IMG/VR virus record: IMGVR_UViG_3300045988_020586
Direction: 5' to 3' (one strand)
Length of the DNA: 64,000 bases
Source: a virus
Shown here: piece after piece, positions 4,978 through 29,908 of the stretch
Layout: each line of letters starts with the position of its first letter
Numbering within the stretch: position 1 is the stretch's first letter
The notes under the pieces: model-generated
Seen by the model: the letters and a program-made list of their open reading frames with translations, nothing else
Databases searched by the model: none
What the model was told of the DNA's origin: nothing
Position numbers and translations under genes: made by a program

Positions 4978-5571
4978 TTATGCTATCTTATCAGCTGGTT
5001 TAGAATCTGCCTTCTGACGCTCGTAGTCGGCAACGATCTTCTCGTTTGCTGCAATGGCAGACAAACACTGAGCCTTAGCCTTATTAGCCTGCTCAATAAT
5101 TGCCTCAAGGCGAGCGATCTCACCACGGTTAAGATCGTTAAGAATGCCACTCAAATCCTTAGGATCTGAGAACACAGCCTTAGAGTTCTTGTCCTTAAGA
5201 GCGTTCTGAACTGCCTCCTCTGTGGTCTCACCAAACTTGGTGCTGTTCTCACCGAGAGGGATATCAATCTGGTGCTCGGTGCCCTCATTGAGACGGCAAA
5301 CGACATCACCGATTGCATTCTGCTTGGTTGCCATAGACTCAATCGTAATATAGCCGATCGCAAAACGGCGAGGTGAACGATTGAGGACAAGGTTTACATT
5401 GGAGCCCTGCTTAGCCTGCTCCAAAACCTTATCATGATCTGGGTTGAACATACGGGTCTGAGGAATAAATACGTCCTGACCGAACATTCTGCCACCGAGC
5501 AAGCTCAGTGGGGTACGATTTGACTTAATTGTAGTTTCCACGATGTTTACATTAATTTCTGACATAATCAT
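4978..5571 (-). CDS. hypothetical protein (197 aa)
   Basis: ORF track; ATG; TAA; 4 nt from the downstream gene; biased codon usage. Confidence 0.75.
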   Translation of the reverse strand: MIMSEINVNIVETTIKSNRTPLSLLGGRMFGQDVFIPQTRMFNPDHDKVLEQAKQGSNVNLVLNRSPRRFAIGYITIESMATKQNAIGDVVCRLNEGTEHQIDIPLGENSTKFGETTEEAVQNALKDKNSKAVFSDPKDLSGILNDLNRGEIARLEAIIEQANKAKAQCLSAIAANEKIVADYERQKADSKPADKIA

Positions 5572-5581
5572 ATCCTTTTTG

Positions 5582-5608
5582 ATATCGTTATTGATTAACT
5601 AACGATAT
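5582..5608. promoter_or_regulatory. 9-bp perfect hairpin 11 nt upstream of the start of CDS 4978..5571
   Basis: ATATCGTTA-TTGATTAAC-TAACGATAT. Confidence 0.35.
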
Positions 5609-5666
5609 GATTTTTAAAATATGGTGTATTTTGGCTACACCTTTGCCGTTGTTTATTGAATAAAGC

Positions 5667-5691
5667 AACGCTGATACGAAGATACTCGGTT
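5667..5691. repeat. Family A conserved-loop hairpin, copy A0
   Basis: Loop CTGATACGAAGATACT is closed by a short bulged stem (AAC.G/C.GTT). The 15-mer TGATACGAAGATACT is shared with 13143, 13314 and 13412. Confidence 0.5.
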
Positions 5692-7101
5692 ACTACTTTG
5701 CTTACTTAGTTTTCTAAAGAAAGTTCTACTATTGTAGACGCTTTTCATAGACTTAGCTACACTATTTCTACTACAACAATAGGGTAGTAGACTTGTAGCA
5801 GGAATTACGTACGTATGACGTAATTAACATTTACTGGATTATCCAGGCCCATCGTCTAAAGCTTTGAATGCTTTCTTTGCATAATCAAATGCTGAACTAT
5901 TTTCTGCTATTTTGTTCACGTTTTTTCTAACTTAACTATTCTAATCTTCGTTGGTGAAATTTTGCAGAGCAACTAACACTCATAGAATCTTAGAATCCTT
6001 ATAACCCACGAAAATATGTAGAATCTCGGTCGTATTTCCCTTACTATACTTACAAGATATTCCTACACGATTGTTATTAAAGCAGATGATCTCTACTGCT
6101 AACTTAAAAGCGACTGTCAGCTAGGTCTCCTTACTGCGGTACTCGGCTTATGGCATGTACCCAGCGGTTGGTTATCGGAATGTCTCAGGATCAAACCCAT
6201 CACAGACTTTACGGCTTTTTACATCTTTGCTGATGTTTGCAATTTTTCTGTACCGGTATTACTACCTCCTATTTATAGTGCACGAATATTGGGAATTCAA
6301 CCCATACATTTCATCTTGTCACCCACTTATAAACGTAATATACATGTATAGAGACAGTATACACATATAATATACACAGTCGTTTTACAACATAGAATAT
6401 AAGCTGCCCATCAATTTCCTGTATTGCTTCGAACCTTTGTGTTTACATATACTGTTGCACAGTATACTTTAGCATGGTTGGCATATCGGTTGGCACTCGA
6501 TTTCTTTACCTCAAGTCCTTACTTACAACGTAAGATACACTCTATAAAGGGACATCAATTTTTTGTTAAACATGTTACATTTTAAACTTTCTAGATTTTC
6601 ATAGTCTATATCTTTTGCATACAACATACGCATATATAATATACCAGCTTACTACTCTGTAGAGACTATATAATATTGCATATCATAATACAAATAGACT
6701 ATTGGTCTAAATTGTTTTGGATGAAAGTGGAGGTCAAATGATCCTGGCTGGATATATCTCGAATCAACTTTCTACCTATTTTGCTATTTCTTATTCTAGG
6801 ATAGCTTTCCATCAATTTTCTTTGACTGTAACGGAGTCATCGATCATAGTCTCATGAACGATTTAATTTTCATGGAAATTGGCTGTAAGTTCGGATTGCC
6901 TAACATCCTAATTGCAACTGGAATAGATTTTCACCGCGATCTTCACCCGCGTACGATACTCCCGTAGAGCTTCGATTAAGGGACTGCCCAACCCTTGTGC
7001 TTGTTTTACTTTTATATACCGCATAAACAAGAAAAGCCTGGCGGTCTACCATGAACTCAGACGTCTTACACCTCATCCCTGGCACCCCTTCAATGGAGTT
7101 G

Positions 7102-7118
7102 TGACGAATCGAACGTCA
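7102..7118 (-). other. Orphan tRNA T-arm-like hairpin
   Basis: Reverse strand reads TGACG-TTCGATT-CGTCA. I could not build an acceptor, D arm or anticodon arm around it. Confidence 0.4.
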
Positions 7119-7731
7119 AGGACTATATGCCAACGTATTCACCATACGTCCCGTGAGTATTATCCTCACGATATTGCGTCTTAGATAAATTTTTCGGCCT
7201 TTATACTAGCTTTGGACACTAGAAACACTACCTACGGCTTAATAATACTTCTATATTGTTTGGGATATCCTCGGTTCTTCCAGCACCATGCACCATACCA
7301 TGTATGCAATTCTGTTCACCTACTGGGGACCAATATAGTTCATCTCGTGTAACGTTCGTGTATGCTTAGTATTATCACATACAATTCCGATACGGTTCAT
7401 TATGCCCTTCTTGGGACTTATGCGTTTTTAGATTACACAGCCTCATCCAGCTTGTCTCCAGACGGTTCTCACAAGTCCAGCTGTGTAATCTATAGGAGTT
7501 GATACAACGCTACTCCTACCTATATCAAACCGTTTCAATGTTTGATACATTTCATCCTACCTTTTGAGTGATCTCGCCCTGCAAGACAGGGTTAACATAT
7601 TCTCGGATCCAGTTTAATTTGATTGAGTTTTTCTTCTAGCTCCTTCGCGGGGGGATGTTCCAGAATAGTACGTAGACTAATGGGATCTACTATATGTACT
7701 TACCTAATTATAGCACATAGGGTTCTTATGT

Positions 7732-10214: not shown

Positions 10215-10772
10215 TTAAACTTTTAAGTTATTTTTAATTTTCCTACGAGTGCGGCTTAATGCTGCTTTTATAGTGCCTGTAGGAGTTTTTAGCACTTTGC
10301 TAATTTCGTCAACTGATAGATCCTCTACGTAAAACAAATTAAAAATCTTTTGTGTCTTTTTAGGGAGCTTTTCAAACTCCTTTAAAAGAAATTCGTGTTC
10401 AAGAAGATTGACAAGATCTTCTTCTTCCGAAGAACTAGTTAATTCTACGGGTAGTCGGCCCATATCTTCTCCTAATTCCATAGATTTCTCCTTTATCTTT
10501 CGTAAATAATCTATAGCCGTTCTATTAGCTATAATTCTCAGCCATCCGCCAAAAGACGAATAATCTGTGAATGTCGAGAGTTTCTGGTGAACCTTAAGAA
10601 ATACAACATTTGTAAGATCTTTAGCTTCATCCATATCATTCACGTAATGAAAGAGTACGTTGTCAACGAACTCCTTATAACGGTTAAACAATTTATTAAA
10701 CGCAAGCTCATTTCCCTTCTGAGCTTCTTTTATGGTCTCAATCTCAGATTGAGTGATACGCTGATACTCCAT
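10215..10772 (-). CDS. ECF-type sigma-70 family sigma factor
   Basis: 185 aa. Region 2-like DLTNVVFLKVHQKL...FGGWLRIIANRTAIDYLRK and region 4-like LSVDEISKVLKTPTGTIKAALSRTRRKIK. Confidence 0.75.
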   Translation of the reverse strand: MEYQRITQSEIETIKEAQKGNELAFNKLFNRYKEFVDNVLFHYVNDMDEAKDLTNVVFLKVHQKLSTFTDYSSFGGWLRIIANRTAIDYLRKIKEKSMELGEDMGRLPVELTSSSEEEDLVNLLEHEFLLKEFEKLPKKTQKIFNLFYVEDLSVDEISKVLKTPTGTIKAALSRTRRKIKNNLKV

Positions 10773-10801
10773 ATTGTGGAGTAGGGGAGATCTCTCTCAC
10801 C

Positions 10802-11230: not shown

Positions 11231-11752
11231 TTAATTAAATGTTTTCTTAATAAACTTAGAAAAATCTTCAAGATATTCATCTAGAAATCCAGCTTTCTCT
11301 GACAAGAAATTATCAAATAGTGCCATATTACCGCATTTACATGATATTTTGTAATAGTTATCTAGGAATTTATAGTTATTTTGAAACCATACAACCCAAC
11401 TATTAACCCATATCCAAAATGCGTATTCTCCAGCATTGAAAGTCTTGTTAATACATTCTAAGTTTATAGAGTCTGCAAAATTAAAATTTTGAGACCCCTC
11501 GTGGATTCCAAGAGCTTTTCTTATTGACGCATTCTTTTCATCTGTTCTAGGTCTCCCTTTTCCAGTGTTGTAGATTGCTATATTCTCTTGATATACACGG
11601 TCTATCCATCGCGTTTTAACGGCATACTTAATTCTTTCGTGTGGCTTCTTACCAATATTTGATAATCTACCAAACTCTGTACACCATTTAAACGCGAGGT
11701 CGACAACATAAGGACACCTGTCCTTTATCATCGCTTTGTATCCCTTTGTCAT
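11231..11752 (-). CDS. hypothetical protein (173 aa)
   Basis: ORF track; ATG; TAA. Confidence 0.7.
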   Translation of the reverse strand: MTKGYKAMIKDRCPYVVDLAFKWCTEFGRLSNIGKKPHERIKYAVKTRWIDRVYQENIAIYNTGKGRPRTDEKNASIRKALGIHEGSQNFNFADSINLECINKTFNAGEYAFWIWVNSWVVWFQNNYKFLDNYYKISCKCGNMALFDNFLSEKAGFLDEYLEDFSKFIKKTFN

Positions 11753-11761
11753 AACTAATAG

Positions 11762-11820
11762 GAAGAAGCTGGGGAATCGAACCCCAGACCCAAACCAAAA
11801 GGCGACGGTACCAACTTCTT
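11762..11820 (-). other. tRNA-like minihelix (acceptor + T arm only)
   Basis: Reverse strand has acceptor AAGAAGT/GCTTCTT and T arm TGGGG-TTCGATT-CCCCA. Only 27 nt lie between them and no D or anticodon arm can be drawn. Confidence 0.4.
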
Positions 11821-11967
11821 TCTTCTCTCCACTTAGGTAGGAAGCACCTAGACTAAACTTACGCTACGCAAGTATAGTCTACAATGTTATTTACATTGCC
11901 GTTTAATTTATAGTATAGTGCTTAATGTATTTATCTCCTCTGTCTGTCAAAACCAAACACGCCCGTG

Positions 11968-11990
11968 TAGGCAGTTTTACAACATGCCTA
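11968..11990. repeat. Family C conserved-loop hairpin, copy C1
   Basis: TAGGCA-GTTTTACAACA-TGCCTA followed by GGTTG. Confidence 0.55.
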
Positions 11991-12047
11991 GGTTGCCACG
12001 TTTTCGCGAACAAAAATGTGATCTGTCATACATAGACACAAACAGAA

Positions 12048-12070
12048 TAGACAGTTTTACAACATGTCTG
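12048..12070. repeat. Family C conserved-loop hairpin, copy C2
   Basis: TAGACA-GTTTTACAACA-TGTCTG followed by GGTTG. Stem differences from C1 are compensatory (G-C to A-T; T-A to T.G). Confidence 0.55.
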
Positions 12071-12180
12071 GGTTGTTGTTCAGATTGAACACTCTCTGCG
12101 GGAGGGTGTGGACGTGAGGGGAGTCGACAAAATCTTCAAGTTCATTGCAACTATTCCACTCTGCTCCACGTTATATTTAT

Positions 12181-12798
12181 ATGGAACAGATAAAGAAATA
12201 TATGCAAAACAGAAAGTTAATAACTTTCGTTTGTGATTGTTGTGGAAAAGAAGCTCAAAAACCTCTTTCCGAATACAACAGAAACAAGAAACTTGGTAGG
12301 AAGAATTTTTGTAGTAGAAGTTGTGCAATTCGTTATGCTAATAAAAATAAATTACATACATTTACAGATAAATGTAGAGAACATCTTTTAAGTATTTGCA
12401 ACAATCAAATAGACGAATATACCGATTTTAGATATATCCTTAGAAGTGTCTATAAAAGATTTAAAGAAGTAGATATAGATTTAGAGTATCTAAAACAACT
12501 TTGGGAGACACAAAAAGGAATTTGCCCTTATACTGGTATAAAATTAAAGCTTCCAACATATAAAAGCCATAACTTCTATTTTGATTGTGCATCTTTAGAC
12601 AGAATAGATTCTTCTAAAGGCTACGTTAAAGGAAATGTTCAATTCATATCATTACCTATAAATTATATGAAATCTACTAAATCAGATATTGAAATCAGAC
12701 AATTTCTTAAACAAATTTCTTCTTACACTTCACATTTCTGCGAAGATGAGACTATCTCTTCACCTAAAGAGGTGTTGGGCGCTCGAGCTGGTAATTAA
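12181..12798 (+). CDS. HNH-family homing endonuclease-like protein, free-standing and opposite to the surrounding operon
   Basis: First ATG inside track ORF 12145..12798 (which starts at TTG). N-terminal CxxC...C...C zinc-finger-like segment; C-terminal CPYTG...ASLDRIDSSKGYVKGNVQFISLPINYMK. Confidence 0.6.
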   Translation: MEQIKKYMQNRKLITFVCDCCGKEAQKPLSEYNRNKKLGRKNFCSRSCAIRYANKNKLHTFTDKCREHLLSICNNQIDEYTDFRYILRSVYKRFKEVDIDLEYLKQLWETQKGICPYTGIKLKLPTYKSHNFYFDCASLDRIDSSKGYVKGNVQFISLPINYMKSTKSDIEIRQFLKQISSYTSHFCEDETISSPKEVLGARAGN

Positions 12799-12832
12799 GA
12801 AGACTATACTTCTCCAGTAGTCGTTGCACTTT

Positions 12833-12850
12833 CTTGTGGTGTACCACAAG
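12833..12850 (+). terminator. Hairpin downstream of the HNH gene (weak terminator candidate)
   Basis: CTTGTGG-TGTA-CCACAAG, 7 bp, no U-tract. Confidence 0.25.
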
Positions 12851-13136
12851 CTTAGCTCAGGGTTAGCATGAACAATACTAGCTTTGAGCTATTATTGTTT
12901 TTAGCCTTCCTTGAATTCACCCAATATGGGCTCGGTAAGAACCCCTGTCCAAACAGATTATTTCATACACACTGTACATTTGTTTTGTAAATGTCCTGAT
13001 GATCAGTCAGAACATTTGATTTAAACCACTTTAGGTGCGTTCTAAGGCATTTTTGCGACACTTGTGGTTAATTACTCCACTCGGTGACATACTCTGCCTC
13101 AGAATGCATTAGAACATGGTTGAAAATATATAGGAA

Positions 13137-13164
13137 TCCTCATGATACGAAGATACTTAGAGGG
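13137..13164. repeat. Family A conserved-loop hairpin, copy A1
   Basis: Stem TCCTC/GAGGG (one T.G); loop A-TGATACGAAGATACT-TA. Confidence 0.55.
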
Positions 13165-13231
13165 CTATATTCAGCATTTTTGATACATTTTGCAGGGTTC
13201 GATTAACTTTCTCAGAGCAACCAAATCTCCC

Positions 13232-13246
13232 CGATACAAAGATACG
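13232..13246. repeat. Degenerate family A core, copy A2, without a clear stem
   Basis: CGATACAAAGATACG compared with TGATACGAAGATACT. Confidence 0.3.
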
Positions 13247-13304
13247 CACAAAACATATTGTTTGATCTACTGTCCCAATTTATTGTGTGGGTTCACATCT
13301 CTTC

Positions 13305-13337
13305 TTCTCATCGTGATACGAAGATACTTGATGAGAA
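13305..13337. repeat. Family A conserved-loop hairpin, copy A3
   Basis: 8-bp stem TTCTCATC/GATGAGAA; 17-nt loop GTGATACGAAGATACTT. Confidence 0.6.
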
Positions 13338-13406
13338 TGTTAATTCATTCTGAGATTCCTTCACTGTCTCGTCCCTCGGGACCTCCTGTAGTACTTGAGA
13401 ATCTGT

Positions 13407-13431
13407 GTACGTGATACGAAGATACTTGTAC
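13407..13431. repeat. Family A conserved-loop hairpin, copy A4
   Basis: 4-bp stem GTAC/GTAC; identical 17-nt loop GTGATACGAAGATACTT; 12 nt from the stop of CDS 13443..13937. Confidence 0.55.
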
Positions 13432-13442
13432 TAGAAGAAGAA

Positions 13443-13937
13443 TTAGAAGCGATCGAACTGATAGTTGGCATAATACCAGCTGTTTGGATACTTGTCGCGC
13501 AACTCACGGTCGTGCTTCTCGTACTCCTGGTTCAGTTCGGTCATCTGCTTACGCTGATCCTCATCGATCTTCTGAGACAGGTCACGGAACATATTTGGCG
13601 TGATCTTCTGGTCGTCAGGAACGACGGTACCATTCTCGTCCTTGCCCAGAAGACGGGCCAACAGCTCTGTACGCTTCTTCAGAATATCGAGGGTGATCTT
13701 TGCCTTCGCACGGTCCTTACGGACATTGAGAAGCTCCTTAATACGGAGATAGTCAGCACACTTAACGATCTCTTTGACCTGGGAGATCTTACGCTTCTCC
13801 TCATCCTGGCGGATCTCTTCTGCCGCCTTGTCTGCAATGTCGGTTACGAGGTTACCCTTAACCAACTTTTCAACAACGTTGTCTACTGACGCATTCTGCT
13901 GCTCTTTAGCAGCACCTTTTGTTTCTGCTTTTGCCAT
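13443..13937 (-). CDS. hypothetical charged coiled-coil-like protein (164 aa)
   Basis: ORF track; ATG; TAA; biased codons. The equal-length + ORF 13395..13889 is a Leu-rich mirror artefact. Confidence 0.75.
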   Translation of the reverse strand: MAKAETKGAAKEQQNASVDNVVEKLVKGNLVTDIADKAAEEIRQDEEKRKISQVKEIVKCADYLRIKELLNVRKDRAKAKITLDILKKRTELLARLLGKDENGTVVPDDQKITPNMFRDLSQKIDEDQRKQMTELNQEYEKHDRELRDKYPNSWYYANYQFDRF

Positions 13938-13970
13938 TTTGATAATGATTTAAAATGTTTGTAAATAAAA

Positions 13971-14204
13971 TTAATTAACACATGTTACTTCGCCCACACT
14001 CCATGATGGATTCTTAACCAATACTGCACCGTCGCTATTAACGGTGATATCACATGGAGCCTTGTGGGCGTAGTTAGCCAAATGAATGAGTGCGAATCTA
14101 GCTTTTTGAGCTTGACTCTCATCAGGGTATTTGGATTCGAATGCCAATGTCTTGACAATCTTACCCTTTACCTTCTTAGTCGTATACACTGGAATCTTCC
14201 ACAT
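13971..14204 (-). CDS. hypothetical protein (77 aa)
   Basis: ORF track; ATG; TAA. Confidence 0.6.
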   Translation of the reverse strand: MWKIPVYTTKKVKGKIVKTLAFESKYPDESQAQKARFALIHLANYAHKAPCDITVNSDGAVLVKNPSWSVGEVTCVN

Positions 14205-14316
14205 AATCGAGAGGATTTAATTTGTTCTGAAACTTGTCACGCTTATAAGCTTTTGCTTTAGCTTCTGCATGACGTTGACGATACACTTTCTTTGTATTAC
14301 GTTGTGTTCTACACAT
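14176..14316 (-). CDS. possible small basic protein (46 aa)
   Basis: Own translation MCRTQRNTKKVYRQRHAEAKAKAYKRDKFQNKLNPLDYVEDSSVYD. It fills the gap between 14319 and 14204 and overlaps the next start. Below the track's size cut-off. Confidence 0.35.
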   Translation of the reverse strand: MCRTQRNTKKVYRQRHAEAKAKAYKRDKFQNKLNPLDYVEDSSVYD

Positions 14317-14318
14317 AG

Positions 14319-14738
14319 TTACATATTATCTTGAACCATTTTGAATACACAAATAACATCGGTAGAAATACCATAAGAATCACGCATTCTCTTACTTACA
14401 CCACAAGATATAATCTTGATAGCGCTTGTGAGAGACTCGTTGTTAGGCTCGTCATTTACAGCCTCGGACAATGCAAGCAACAACTTCATTTTTGAGTTGA
14501 AGAACTTGCCAAACTTCTCTTTTGCGTAGATGCACGCAGACTCTGCGACAGACAATTCTGTAGCACTCTTGTTTTCTGCGTGGCGGATAACAATGGAACT
14601 GACTTCTCTTTCATCCATTGTAGATACATGCACATCCGTAACATCTGATTTAATAACCTTTAATTGTGAGGCTATCAACGCAACTTCAGATGGGCCCAAA
14701 TCTGAACCTTTGTAAGAGATAACGATGTACTGCTTCAT
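14319..14738 (-). CDS. hypothetical protein (139 aa)
   Basis: ORF track; ATG; TAA. Confidence 0.7.
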   Translation of the reverse strand: MKQYIVISYKGSDLGPSEVALIASQLKVIKSDVTDVHVSTMDEREVSSIVIRHAENKSATELSVAESACIYAKEKFGKFFNSKMKLLLALSEAVNDEPNNESLTSAIKIISCGVSKRMRDSYGISTDVICVFKMVQDNM

Positions 14739-18920: not shown

Positions 18921-18952
18921 ATATATAATTATTGATTAATATACATAATAAA

Positions 18953-18982
18953 AACGTGCCTATCTTCACAGACCAGCACGTT
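18953..18982. repeat. Family B conserved-loop hairpin, copy B1
   Basis: Stem AACGTGC/GCACGTT (7 bp); loop CTATCTTCACAGACCA (16 nt). Confidence 0.65.
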
Positions 18983-19460
18983 GAGCATCGAAATAAAACC
19001 TACGTCACTTAGTAAAAGATGATGTAAGAAAATCGGTATGGTAAAAAACAAATTGAAGTGGTTACTGGACTCGAACCGTCGCTATGTTGCGCTTTACTAT
19101 AGCCAAGTACAATATCCATATAATGCATTTGTACATAGTATACCCTCTTGCTTTAGCAAGTGTATAATAACCACTATCCGTCTCTCCAGATTGTCATAGA
19201 GACTGGGTCTACATTTGACAGATTGCACCTTTTGCAAATAGGCTGTAGTTACCGTATCTCAGTTTTACACGTAAACCTATTGCCTATAGACGACTCACCC
19301 TCTGTGTTCTACAATCGACATCTTATAGCTTTGCAAGTACCATAAGCACGTGTTGTAGTCATGGGCTTGGGACCATGAACGCCACATTACTGCCTACGAT
19401 TTATCACGTTAGCGTAGGCGCTCCGTCATCCTAGTTTATATACCGCATGAGATAACGGTT

Positions 19461-19492
19461 TAATACAACTATCTTCACAGACCATTGTATTA
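19461..19492. repeat. Family B conserved-loop hairpin, copy B2
   Basis: Stem TAATACAA/TTGTATTA (8 bp); identical 16-nt loop. Confidence 0.65.
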
Positions 19493-19609
19493 TGAGGTCT
19501 ATTCGCGCTTTGAGTAATGAATCAGACTACACCATGATGCAACATGTGTAGTTTCGTCTAGGTCTCATCAGTGATGATTTTAGACTCTCCCTAGCTGAGT
19601 TTAAATAAA

Positions 19610-19641
19610 ACATACCACTATCTTCACAGACCATGGTATGT
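19610..19641. repeat. Family B conserved-loop hairpin, copy B3
   Basis: Stem ACATACCA/TGGTATGT (8 bp); identical 16-nt loop. Confidence 0.65.
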
Positions 19642-19791
19642 GCCAAACCTATTGTTGTTACACTTAACAACTACAACCTACATCCTAACTAAAAAACCTG
19701 ACATTTATTTGATTATTATACGTCTTTATTTGTCTTTCCAAATGCCAACGCTTATTTATACTCTTGCGTATAGAGTTATGTTATTATACAT

Positions 19792-28433: not shown

Positions 28434-29908
28434 ATGGAGTTAAAATTTAAGAGACTTGAGGACGAAGCGGTCCTCCCTATTCGTAGCACAGAAGGTGCTG
28501 CAGGAATTGATTTGACATGCATTAAGATTGATACAGCTCTTAATGAAGCAAATCAGCTAATGTTGGTTTACCATACAGGATTGGCAGTTGAGATTCCTGC
28601 CGGATATGTTGGTTTACTTATACCACGCTCTAGTATTTGGAAGAAATCATTATGGCTTACTGATAATGTTGGAGTGATTGACGCTAGAATATTGATACGT
28701 TATTGAGTATCAATGCAACCAACTCTATTCGCATATCGTTATGATGATATAACTAAACACAAAATATCATGATAACAAAAATTTGCAAACAATGTGGTAA
28801 GGAATTTGATGTACCAGAATACAGAAAGGATGCTAAATACTGCTGTGACGAATGTAAACACAAAGCACTGCATGGAGATTTAAATTGTGAGTGTGAGGTT
28901 TGTGGCAAGAAATTCCACTTAAAACCATACGCTCTTAAAAAGAGTAAACATCATACATGTAGCCGCGAGTGTTTAAACAAACTTAAAAGTACATTATATA
29001 AAGGTGAAGGAAATCATCAATATGGTCTAAAAGGCGATAAGAATTCATCTTTCAAAGGAAACGTAATCCTGCGTAAGAACAATGGACTAATCGAGAGAAT
29101 GATCTACAATCCTAGACACCCATACGCTGATCGTAATGGTAGGATTAAGGAACACAGATTAATAGTTGAGCAGAATTACAAAATGTTTGACGATAAATAC
29201 TTTGAAGTTATAAACGGAGAGCATTATTTAAAGAAGAATGTAGATGTACATCACATTAACTTTAATCATAACGATAATAGAATAGAAAACCTAATTCCCT
29301 TGACTAGAGCGGAACATACAAAGCTTCATAACCAAAATGAAGTTATATACAGAAATGAGAAGGGAATGATAATTGGTGTCTTAAAACAGGGTGAATTGCT
29401 GGAAAAGCCTGAAGAGGTCAATCAGCAGCCAAGCTTGGGTAGTGATACCCTTGAAGGTTCAGAGACTAACAGCCGAGTCTTACGAGACAGTAATGCTGAC
29501 ACGAGTGCCCTGCCCGGAAACGGTGAAGATATAGTCCGATCTACTGATAACAAAATAAACAGTAGAAATATAGAGATAAAGAGCTCTATAGATTAACAAC
29601 TCCTAATTTTGTTGGATTATAGAGGAGAGATTATAGCTATAATGAAAGCCACAACAGATGTGGTTCCTGCTATTTATAAGCAGGGCGAGCGCTTCTGTCA
29701 GTTGGTCATAGTTCCGGTGCCAGAATACGAGGTTACAGAAGTGTCTGAGCTTTCTGATACAAAACGAGGCGAGAATGGCTTTGGTTCAACTGGTACCGAT
29801 AATAAGGAAGTTAGCGCAGCTGCGGGAACTGAGGCACAGGCTAGCGAACAGCCACAGTCCGTACCAGAGCAAGCGGCGGCACAAGATGGTGCTGAGGTAG
29901 GTGAGTGA
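28434..29908 (+). CDS. dut: dUTPase, split gene: join(28434..28685, 29615..29908)
   Basis: Exon 1 ends ...NVGVIDA and exon 2 starts DYRGEIIAIM..., so joining restores the GVID.DYRGE motif. Other motifs: AAGIDL, IPRSS, KRGENGFGSTG. Confidence 0.8.
28686..29614 (+). mobile_element. Group I-like intron in dUTPase carrying an HNH ORF
   Basis: The junction is set by the protein motif. The 5' exon ends in T (28685) and the intron ends in G (29614), as expected for group I. Local helix ATTGATAC-GTTATTGA-GTATCAAT near the 5' end. Confidence 0.65.
28769..29596 (+). CDS. Intron-encoded HNH homing endonuclease
   Basis: 275 aa; N-terminal Cys clusters; VDVHHINFNHNDNRIENLIPLTRAEHTKLH; no internal TAG; TAA stop. 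Confidence 0.8.
   Translation: MITKICKQCGKEFDVPEYRKDAKYCCDECKHKALHGDLNCECEVCGKKFHLKPYALKKSKHHTCSRECLNKLKSTLYKGEGNHQYGLKGDKNSSFKGNVILRKNNGLIERMIYNPRHPYADRNGRIKEHRLIVEQNYKMFDDKYFEVINGEHYLKKNVDVHHINFNHNDNRIENLIPLTRAEHTKLHNQNEVIYRNEKGMIIGVLKQGELLEKPEEVNQQPSLGSDTLEGSETNSRVLRDSNADTSALPGNGEDIVRSTDNKINSRNIEIKSSID

Follow-up and report, generated by a model that had tools for sequence, protein, structure and literature searches.

A doubled pentanucleotide in hairpin loops upstream of a tmRNA gene and at translation starts of crAss-like phages

Operator hairpins and sponge RNAs are well known, and the Csr and phage-repressor systems compared here are general knowledge. In the CsrA/RsmA and CsrB/RsmZ systems of gamma-proteobacteria, a short single-stranded motif at the starts of target genes is repeated in the hairpin loops of a sponge RNA, which titrates the dimeric protein. 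Phages control replication and early genes through RNA sites at the AUG, as with T4 RegA, gp43 and gp32 and with the coat operators of MS2, Q-beta and PP7; in MS2, PP7 and Q-beta the site is carried on a hairpin, and its specificity differs between related phages. The site of the lambda N/boxB system, found closely behind a stop codon in a long early transcript, is a small hairpin with a phage-specific loop and occurs in several classes. Bacillus TRAP, HutP and PyrR recognize short words at a fixed short period in single-stranded RNA. Here we analyse a family of hairpins (family A) in a 64,000-nucleotide (nt) stretch of viral DNA (IMG/VR record IMGVR_UViG_3300045988_020586; hereafter the window), four members of which, A1 to A4, form an array near 13 kb. 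The window comes from a crAss-like phage of the genus Burzaovirus (Crassvirales, Suoliviridae, Oafivirinae), 87–90% identical to cr124_1 and cr7_1. Among the viruses of the human gut, crAss-like phages are the most abundant. To our knowledge, almost nothing is known of how their gene expression is timed, and we know of no Shine–Dalgarno-led initiation and no classical Hfq or CsrA regulators in their hosts.

Family A appears to be the local form of a cis-acting RNA element, A-[GNNNC]-N3-[GNNNC]-A, of Suoliviridae/Oafivirinae crAss-like phages, which would be transcribed on the gene-sense strand and usually displayed in a hairpin loop on a freely varying stem. On the transcribed strand the order is gene X, A4, A3, A2, A1, a conserved helix domain, a transfer-messenger RNA (tmRNA) gene, the small genes Y and Z, and the gene for an extracytoplasmic function (ECF) sigma factor. 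The layout of a Csr/Rsm sponge is found here: there are four loop copies per array, and the pentamer pair of the lineage also stands at the starts of sigma, RecA-like and DNA polymerase genes. In contrast to Csr/Rsm, the site would be a tandem GNNNC-N3-GNNNC, the system phage-encoded, the array fused to the precursor of a tmRNA or transfer RNA (tRNA), and the pentamer switched between lineages. The GGA core (A(N)GGA) of Csr/Rsm is absent from the loops (GUAUC-N3-GUAUC or GAGCC-N3-GAGCC), and no CsrA-family protein was found by Pfam and PHROG among 10 neighbouring proteins, the host genome being outside the search. There is no sequence or structural likeness to the T4- and MS2-type operators, and neither the doubled pentamer in a large loop nor the four-copy non-coding array has a counterpart there. 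boxB has a 5-nt GNRA-like loop, is paired with boxA and occurs at two sites per genome, whereas here the loops are of 17–19 nt with a tandem repeat and there are copies on start codons. TRAP, HutP and PyrR use 3-nt words in 3–11 repeats to control termination in leaders, whereas here two 5-nt words are found mostly in hairpin loops and in some cases on start codons. Full-text literature searches returned no description of such elements in crAss-like phages, and the element would define a new family, marked by an unusual design of the site, fusion to a tmRNA/tRNA precursor and natural specificity classes.

A doubled pentamer on the gene-sense strand

The 15-mer TGATACGAAGATACT occurs exactly at positions 5672, 13143, 13314 and 13412 of the plus strand, and its core recurs with one mismatch at 13233. 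These are the copies listed by the first-pass annotation (a model's reading of the letters), including A0 near 5672, about 100 nt upstream of the coding sequence (CDS) 4978..5571. With up to 2 mismatches allowed, the 13-nt core has 8 matches in place of the 1.9 expected, and none of 100 shuffles reached 8. The start-to-start distances within the array are 89, 82 and 98 nt. On the minus strand GTATC-NNN-GTATC is found six times, and on the plus strand of the window not at all (0.07 expected per strand); the sixth copy, at 10755–10767, lies inside the ECF sigma gene, in codons 2–6. The same bias was seen in the complete genome of cr124_1 (7 copies on the minus strand, 0 on the plus), in cr131_1 (8 sense copies, 2.6±1.7 expected, and 0 antisense) and over 30 distinct lineage variants (128 sense versus 11 antisense pentamer pairs). 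The element is therefore on the gene-sense, minus strand, and not on the plus strand on which it had been drawn.

The middle triplet differs among relatives (UUC, UUU, UUA, AUC, AUA and AUU in the sense orientation), while both pentamers never change. The conserved unit is (A)A-GUAUC-NNN-GUAUC-A(C/U) on the minus strand. Thus, of the internal repeat GATAC-GAA-GATAC that had been pointed out, the doubled pentamer is invariant and the middle GAA is not. Because these middle bases vary, neither the 15-mer, nor the heptamer shared with a second hairpin family (family B), nor the likeness to the host promoter consensus TAnnTTTG is a conserved feature. The proposed link between families A and B, and a kissing contact between them via the shared heptamer, were rejected, as part of the heptamer falls in the variable spacer. 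From 130 distinct hairpin instances we derived the consensus A(−1, 68%)-[pentamer]-(U/A)-U-N-[pentamer]-A(+1, 77%); the spacer is 3 nt long in 89 of these instances. A search for any tandem pentamer in any hairpin had no discriminating power (388 sense versus 385 antisense) and was set aside.

Hairpin A4 (13407..13431, minus strand) is the first element past the stop of CDS 13443..13937 and reads GUAC-AA-GUAUC UUC GUAUC-AC-GUAC in the sense orientation. Its stem is GUAC/GUAC, AGAC/GUCU, GGAC/GUCC, GGGC/GCCC or GUGC/GCAU depending on the lineage, with changes on both sides in 3 of the 4 pairs. A3 (13305..13337, minus strand) reads UUCUCAUC-AA-GUAUC UUC GUAUC-AC-GAUGAGAA, the stem being TTCTCATC/GATGAGAA on the plus strand; CUCAUC/GAUGAG here is replaced by CCUAUC/GAUAGG or CCUGUC/GAUAGG in relatives, with all cells paired and 2 pairs changed on both sides. 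A2 (13233..13245, minus strand), GUAUC UUU GUAUC, has no local stem and stands in the invariant context GUGC-motif-GGGGAG. It was kept in 38 of 38 aligned relatives, of which a single one (L158; relatives are labelled in this way) has a short stem, GUGC/GCAC. A1 (13128..13170, minus strand) has an inner stem CCUC/GAGG around UAA-GUAUC UUC GUAUC-AU and an outer helix AUAUA/UAUAU (13128–13132 / 13166–13170). The outer helix covaries, with 2 compensatory pairs in L158 and L159, and the inner stem of L158 has G.U pairs that are possible on the sense strand only. A0 (5663..5703, minus strand) carries GUAUC UUC GUAUC (5673–5685) within a stem AAGCAA/UUGCUU. This copy, found where a 2.1-kb non-coding stretch reaches its 3′ end and about 100 nt before CDS 4978..5571 starts, is kept in relatives; the stem in L010 is AAGCAUCG/CGUUGCUU. 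The inverted repeats of A1, A3 and A4 thus differ from each other as had been described, and A2 is the degenerate, stemless copy it had been taken for. For A1 the inner stem CCTC/GAGG stood, and the element proved longer than described, owing to the covarying outer helix.

We aligned the whole interval from gene X to the tmRNA for 38 distinct relatives, whose protein X is as little as 65% identical at the amino-acid level. In this alignment, 94.9% of the cells of the three stems and the outer A1 helix were paired, compared with 22–65% when the 3′ partners were slid. Seven stem pairs change on both sides, and none of 500 shuffles reached the observed covariation score. Among one-sided changes (our own count from the per-pair table), about 9 give G.U on the sense strand and about 2 give A.C, which mildly favours folding of the minus strand. 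In the 130 instances, at least 4 contiguous Watson–Crick pairs flank the loop in 58%, compared with 11% at random positions of the same loci, and 51 different stem sequences are used across lineages. The first-pass annotation had proposed one loop on different stems and had named its conservation in relatives as the test; the relatives do keep the loop on variable, covarying stems. Taken together, the comparative data speak for four genuine hairpins, conserved on the gene-sense strand and probably acting as RNA. Self-pairing of GUAU with GUAU around a CNNN tetraloop, as suggested by RNAalifold, was rejected as a general principle, because loops of the GAGCC type cannot form it; the conserved feature is therefore a doubled word in a single-stranded loop and not a mini-helix.

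The array across lineages and copies at translation starts

Loci were gathered via homologues of protein X, the probe AAGAGCCTTTGAGCCA and the sigma factor. In about 30 lineage variants the four-hairpin array has this same position, mostly with pentamers of another kind (GAGCC, GAGUC or GAACC), which answers the question, raised with the original annotation, of its copy number and position in related genomes. The shared layout consists of about four hairpins, 80–110 nt apart, on the sense strand and 1.2–2.7 kb upstream of the sigma gene. Depending on the lineage, the array is followed 3′ by a permuted tmRNA, by tRNA-Arg(UCU), by tRNA-Ile or by no gene recognized by ARAGORN. In all relatives it lies between a minus-strand gene and, where one is called, a minus-strand tmRNA or tRNA gene. 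Convergent genes on either side, as had been reported, are thus true of this isolate only, since the plus-strand open reading frame (ORF) lies in an intron that most relatives lack. In cr131_1 (genus Cacepaovirus) a partly homologous leader precedes the tmRNA, with the loops GAACC-UUU-GAGUC, GAGCC-UA-GAGCC, GAGUC-AUUG-GAGCC and GAGUC-UUA-GAGCC. GUAUC is a minority class (Burzaovirus and the L458/L459 lineage), GAGCC, GAGUC and GAACC being common. As judged from these comparisons, the design of the hairpin is older than its sequence. A probe for a GAUAC-type array, AAGATACNTNGATACA, gave chance singletons and no clusters among the matches listed, which is not a negative result.

Variation of other kinds was seen around these loci. 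The tmRNA slot holds tRNA-Arg(UCU) or tRNA-Ile(UAU) in other genera (L166–L170, 3426–3522; L165, 1429–1509), and ARAGORN reported tRNA-like genes with a 2-nt anticodon in L158 and L166. Ten unrelated-looking viral contigs (L176, L178, L186, L187, L194, L196–L198, L201 and L202) contain the run GAGCC AA GAGCC TTT GAGCC AA GAGCC. About 282 nt upstream of the sigma start, L457–L459 have a hairpin (U)AUAA-GACGU UG GACGU AC-UUAU(A), and GACGU-like words precede the RecA-like start in L245, L247 and L287; GACGU may be a further specificity class.

Single copies of the motif lie on translation starts. At the start of the ECF sigma gene (CDS 10215..10772, minus strand), which reads AUG GAGUAUCAGCGUAUC... 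in the window, the copy at 10755..10767 occupies codons 2–6 in the arrangement AUG GA-GUAUC AGC GUAUC-A CU CAAUC, and directly 3′ of it is a conserved hairpin, CUCAAUC-UGA-GAUUGAG. The sigma start of L166–L170 is AUG AAA AAU CCA A-GAAUC ACA GAAUC within a stem AAAAUC/GAUUUU; L165 has GAAUC UUA GAAUC, and several further lineages have GAAUC CNA GAAUC, encoding K-N-P-R-I. In Burzaovirus the N-terminus is recoded to E-Y-Q-R-I, with the Arg codon changed from AGA to CGU, which yields the genus's own GUAUC pair.

The seventh copy of cr124_1, ...UUUUA GUAUC AUU GUAUC AUG, abuts the start of the RecA-like gene gp77, just beyond the left end of the window. We compared this gene at 80 loci: a tandem G...C pentamer ends at the AUG in 10 of 35 distinct upstream sequences, from at least 5 lineages. 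The pairs are GUAUC AUU GUAUC, GUAUC ACA GUAUC, GAACC AAA GAGUC, GAGCC AUU GAGCC, GAUAC (N2–3) GAUAC and GAUGC AUU GACAC, so that the pentamer at the RecA-like start is lineage-specific; the start in cr131_1 is preceded by a degenerate GAGCU AU AAGCC AUG. GAUAC stands at this start in IMGVR_UViG_3300045988_082615, _062669 and _076504, and GAACC/GAGUC in _074833, although the RecA of the last is 93% identical to that of Burzaovirus. In cr131_1 the 13-mer GAACCUUUGAGUC of array copy 1 recurs exactly before the AUG of the DNA polymerase (A GAACC UUU GAGUC AUG), and the start codon of gp46 lies inside a motif, GAACC-U-AUG-AGUC. In these putative operators the conserved 3′-flanking (+1) A is the A of the AUG. 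As a control, such a motif was found at 2 of 184 ORF starts in two genomes, both of them known sites, and at 1 of 41 annotated starts of the leftward module of cr124_1, that of the RecA-like gene.

A possible RNA-binding regulator and other readings

We consider that the element is probably an RNA-level site for a trans-acting factor. Our fuller reading, to which we give a probability of about one half, is that it is the binding site of a trans-acting regulator, with the single sites as translational operators and the array as a decoy or sink. An RNA-binding regulator, probably dimeric or two-domain in keeping with two equivalent units, would bind the doubled pentamer, with RNA and not single-stranded DNA as the active form. 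The regulator would most likely be phage-encoded and co-evolve with the word, because the pentamer changes between lineages. The single copies, at the sigma gene, at the RecA-like gene and, in another genus, at the DNA polymerase gene, would be operators that, when occupied, block or modulate loading of the 30S subunit. In the untranslated leader of 430 nt, the four hairpins would offer the same site four times on an abundant non-coding transcript, and such a sink may set the concentration of free regulator and hence the timing of sigma and replication-gene translation. A two-unit RNA-binding regulator acting in trans would be the simplest account, because it covers the doubled word with its 8-nt period, its presence in the sense orientation only, its display in loops, the sites on start codons, the same word on the leader and the switches between lineages. 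Tentatively, these parts could make up a phage timing circuit, comprising a dimeric repressor, start-codon operators, a decoy co-transcribed with the tmRNA or tRNA, and at least 3–4 specificity switches (GARYC, GUAUC, GAUAC).

Several observations weigh against this reading. A2 is stemless, about 100 nt separate A0 from the nearest start codon, and no copy stands at the sigma start in L459 or in the cr131 group. Co-switching of array and operator pentamers is documented in only a few lineages. Folding of single sequences gave −2.8 to −9 kcal/mol with z of 0 to −1.2, which is not significant and is about equal on both strands; as these folds are weak, thermodynamics alone would not establish the hairpins, and the evidence for them is comparative. 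A cruder wobble count gave G.U 32 versus A.C 28, which is uninformative on strand because the invariant A...C flanks were scored as a pair. The decoy role is argued from architecture alone, and we hold it to be a tentative part of the scheme. No RNA-binding family (Pfam, PHROG) and no binding partner was identified among the 10 neighbouring proteins. Protein X, unassigned by Pfam and PHROG, is a candidate partner for which there is no support either way: its AlphaFold2 model is a long antiparallel helical hairpin (predicted local distance difference test, pLDDT, 81), for which all Foldseek matches had E > 1. The model of the basic protein Y (pLDDT 59) was too poor for a structure search.

The array might instead serve in handling of the transcript, either as nut/boxB-like loading sites for antitermination or as sites at which an endonuclease processes the polycistronic leftward transcript, releasing the tmRNA or tRNA; we regard this as rather unlikely. 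Antitermination would carry the polymerase through the 430-nt leader plus the tmRNA or tRNA, and through the 2.1-kb region that ends at A0. In every case the array occupies an untranslated leader with a stable-RNA gene (tmRNA, tRNA-Arg or tRNA-Ile) directly downstream, and A4 begins 11–12 nt past the stop codon; lambda nutR likewise sits shortly after a stop codon. Handling of the transcript would also agree with A0 ending a 2.1-kb non-coding stretch, with the conservation and structure of the inter-hairpin segments themselves, and with a lineage-specific loop on a conserved hairpin design, like the N–boxB specificity classes. It leaves unexplained, however, the copies that end at an AUG (RecA-like, DNA polymerase) or lie in sigma codons 2–9, where a nut-like complex would be cleared by ribosomes and where cleavage, though possibly regulatory, would destroy the mRNA. 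Release of ~90-nt RNAs by processing, as had been suggested for the array, does not explain the copies on translation starts either. The loops differ from those of lambda-type nut sites in both size and sequence; for a boxA-like element no systematic search was made. It is also possible, if improbable, that a larger non-coding RNA, such as an extension of the tmRNA/tRNA precursor or an ornate phage RNA, includes the array as a structural module whose pentamers make tertiary or quaternary contacts, the start-codon copies being separate or coincidental. Conservation does extend in blocks over the whole 430-nt interval, several helices covary besides those of the four hairpins, and homologous blocks are found in different genera. 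GOLLD and ROOL are phage-associated RNAs encoded beside tRNA genes. But no Rfam match was obtained, GOLLD and ROOL included: with Rfam 15 the array had none at the gathering threshold or at E ≤ 1, and the sole significant match in a scan of 11500–14500 was a group I intron. Most lineages' pentamers are not self-complementary, so that mutual loop–loop contacts are not available, and the presence of a lineage's own pentamer at start codons is far beyond chance.

The stem covariation would be equally compatible with single-stranded DNA, and hairpins extruded on the minus strand, or exposed on the lagging-strand template, could be promoters for the phage's own polymerase or sigma factor, as in phage N4, or priming or assembly sites. 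The N4 hairpin promoter has a 5–7 bp stem and a 3-nt loop and lies upstream of early genes, with initiation just downstream; here the loops are of 17–19 nt, and in several cases a copy ends at a start codon or inside one. A crAss-like phage is reported to carry a virion RNA polymerase that transcribes denatured DNA; this enzyme uses single-stranded templates, and no early promoter motif was found for it (10.1101/2020.03.07.982082). In addition, the phage encodes its own ECF sigma factor, and the minus strand would be the lagging-strand template of the left replichore if the origin were at the GC-skew minimum near 24 kb. Action as DNA nevertheless seems quite improbable to us: a promoter that ends at an AUG or lies within codons 2–9 cannot express that gene, no sigma promoter is known to have a geometry of 5-nt words 3 nt apart, the GC-skew switch is a long way from the array, and one-sided changes in the stems lean towards G.U, a pair that RNA tolerates better. 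We think it very improbable that a plus-strand antisense RNA is made, whose GAUAC-N3-GAUAC loops would pair with GUAUC-N3-GUAUC on the sigma, RecA-like and gp68 mRNAs. The operator pentamers are matched by complementary plus-strand loops, and A0 is complementary to the A1, A3 and A4 loops over all 13 nt; the plus strand folds as well as the minus strand, and the HNH ORF of this isolate gives plus-strand transcription towards the array. But the one-sided stem changes favour the minus strand, the spacers at the sigma and RecA-like sites mismatch and leave two isolated 5-bp helices, most relatives have no nearby plus-strand gene, and promoter-like sites on the plus strand are no commoner than by chance. 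Stacked intrinsic terminators or host (Bacteroidetes) promoters, both of which had been proposed, are hardly credible. Position downstream of a stop codon would suit them, and TATCTTCG is one mismatch from TAnnTTTG, with the A-variant TATCTTTG matching exactly; but the base that decides the −7 match is variable, the putative seventh base being C, T or A, and the sister loops of the GAGCC type (GAGCC-N3-GAGCC) show no −7 likeness. Bacteroidetes promoters combine a −7 TAnnTTTG with a −33 TTTG 19–21 nt upstream, and reading of the sequence revealed no −33 TTTG at the right spacing. The single copies that end at or lie inside start codons are likewise incompatible with promoters for those genes. 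No terminator-like site (a G+C-rich stem with a T run) was found in 12900–13500, the stems being of 4–8 bp and A+U-rich, with loops of 17–19 nt and no U tract after them. The array also differs from clustered regularly interspaced short palindromic repeats (CRISPR) and solitary repeats, in that the loop alone is shared, the stems differ and the inter-hairpin segments are conserved across relatives. Two further candidates were discarded: replication-origin iterons (the skew switch is near 24 kb and the array at 13 kb, and stem covariation is unexpected for double-stranded sites) and an ECF-sigma promoter with GAAC and GTC words (the spacing is 3 nt instead of 16–17, and the motif sits on start codons).

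If binding by a regulator with operators and a decoy array is correct, no other Csr-like sponge system would be known from a phage or from the Bacteroidetes world, in which CsrA is lacking. A conserved RNA word displayed four times on a leader would offer a testable handle on post-transcriptional control, through RNA bait, operator mutations and natural specificity variants, and in Bacteroides the compact hairpin might one day be put to use as an orthogonal RNA tag or regulator.

The leader, the tmRNA gene and other RNA elements

From about 1.7 kb to 22 kb the window is transcribed leftwards, from the minus strand, and a GC-skew minimum coincides with a switch of gene orientation near 24 kb. 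The region is dense in RNA biology, with a permuted tmRNA, a group I intron in its T-loop and a hammerhead ribozyme. CDS 13443..13937 (minus strand) encodes protein X, of 164 amino acids, and directly precedes the array wherever checked; in cr124_1 and cr7_1 the array interval likewise lies between the protein X homologue and a permuted two-piece tmRNA gene. Because blocks and extra covarying helices are conserved between the hairpins, the interval is one conserved structured leader of about 430 nt and not four repeats alone. Its helix domain (13037..13108, minus strand) has a 12-bp closing helix, GCAUUCUGAGGC/GCCUUAGAACGC, that encloses an invariant hairpin, GUGGAGUAAUUAACCAC; double changes occur in 15 sequences (pair 400–465) and in 9 (pair 410–456), and cr131_1 has a 21-bp equivalent of the 12-bp helix. 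This domain may belong to the acceptor piece of the tmRNA or to its precursor.

The 3′ flank of A2 (13225–13232, sense GGGGAGAU) is complementary to 10784–10791 (sense AUCUCCCC), 12–19 nt upstream of the sigma AUG. The A2-flank block is the invariant GGGGAG(A) and its sigma-side partner a pyrimidine block; the pairing would persist in L157–L159 via G.U wobbles. It could be a long-range contact or a coincidence.

The permuted tmRNA gene (11769..13011, minus strand) consists of exon 1, ~13011–12941, and exon 2, from 12127 to ~11769. In both reference genomes ARAGORN calls it as tmRNA*, with the tag peptide GNVNNIVDYTNVA, and Rfam RF04321 scores 63 bits (gathering score 47). In the window a group I intron of 813 nt (12940–12128, minus strand) splits the T-loop (GGGGU / UCGACUCCCC), and ARAGORN misses the split gene. 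We set the intron borders by comparison with a 99%-identical intron-less relative (L122): the 5′ exon ends in U and the intron in G. Antisense inside the intron is an ORF (12145..12798, plus strand) with a match to PHROG 3322 (HNH/endonuclease VII-like, E = 4e-23); it is absent from intron-less relatives, and most relatives lack the intron. From this homology, the ORF is assigned as an HNH/endonuclease VII-type homing endonuclease. In L123, L150 and L154 the tmRNA* is 422–432 nt long, 70–80 nt longer than the usual ~355 nt, and ARAGORN finds none in L124, which suggests further insertions or introns in the tmRNA gene among isolates.

The 2.1 kb upstream of A0 (5572–7731) contain no ORF of note and are kept non-coding in cr124_1 and cr131_1; an Rfam scan of this region found nothing. 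Three CATCAATTT(T/C)C-like words lie in it, at 6409, 6553 and 6810 of the plus strand. In the crAss-like phage phi14:2, long intergenic regions are reported to be very highly transcribed (10.1101/2020.03.07.982082).

Elsewhere in the window, a RAGATH-1 hammerhead ribozyme (19520–19601, minus strand; Rfam, 71.9 bits) is flanked by hairpins of family B near 18950–18985, 19460–19495 and 19610–19645, which have variable stems and the sense loop UGGUCUGUGAAGAUAG. For the family B loop, a fold GUCU-GUGA-AGAU with a tetraloop of the GNRA type is possible. A second group I intron (29316–29557, plus strand; Rfam, 65 bits) lies in the rightward module.

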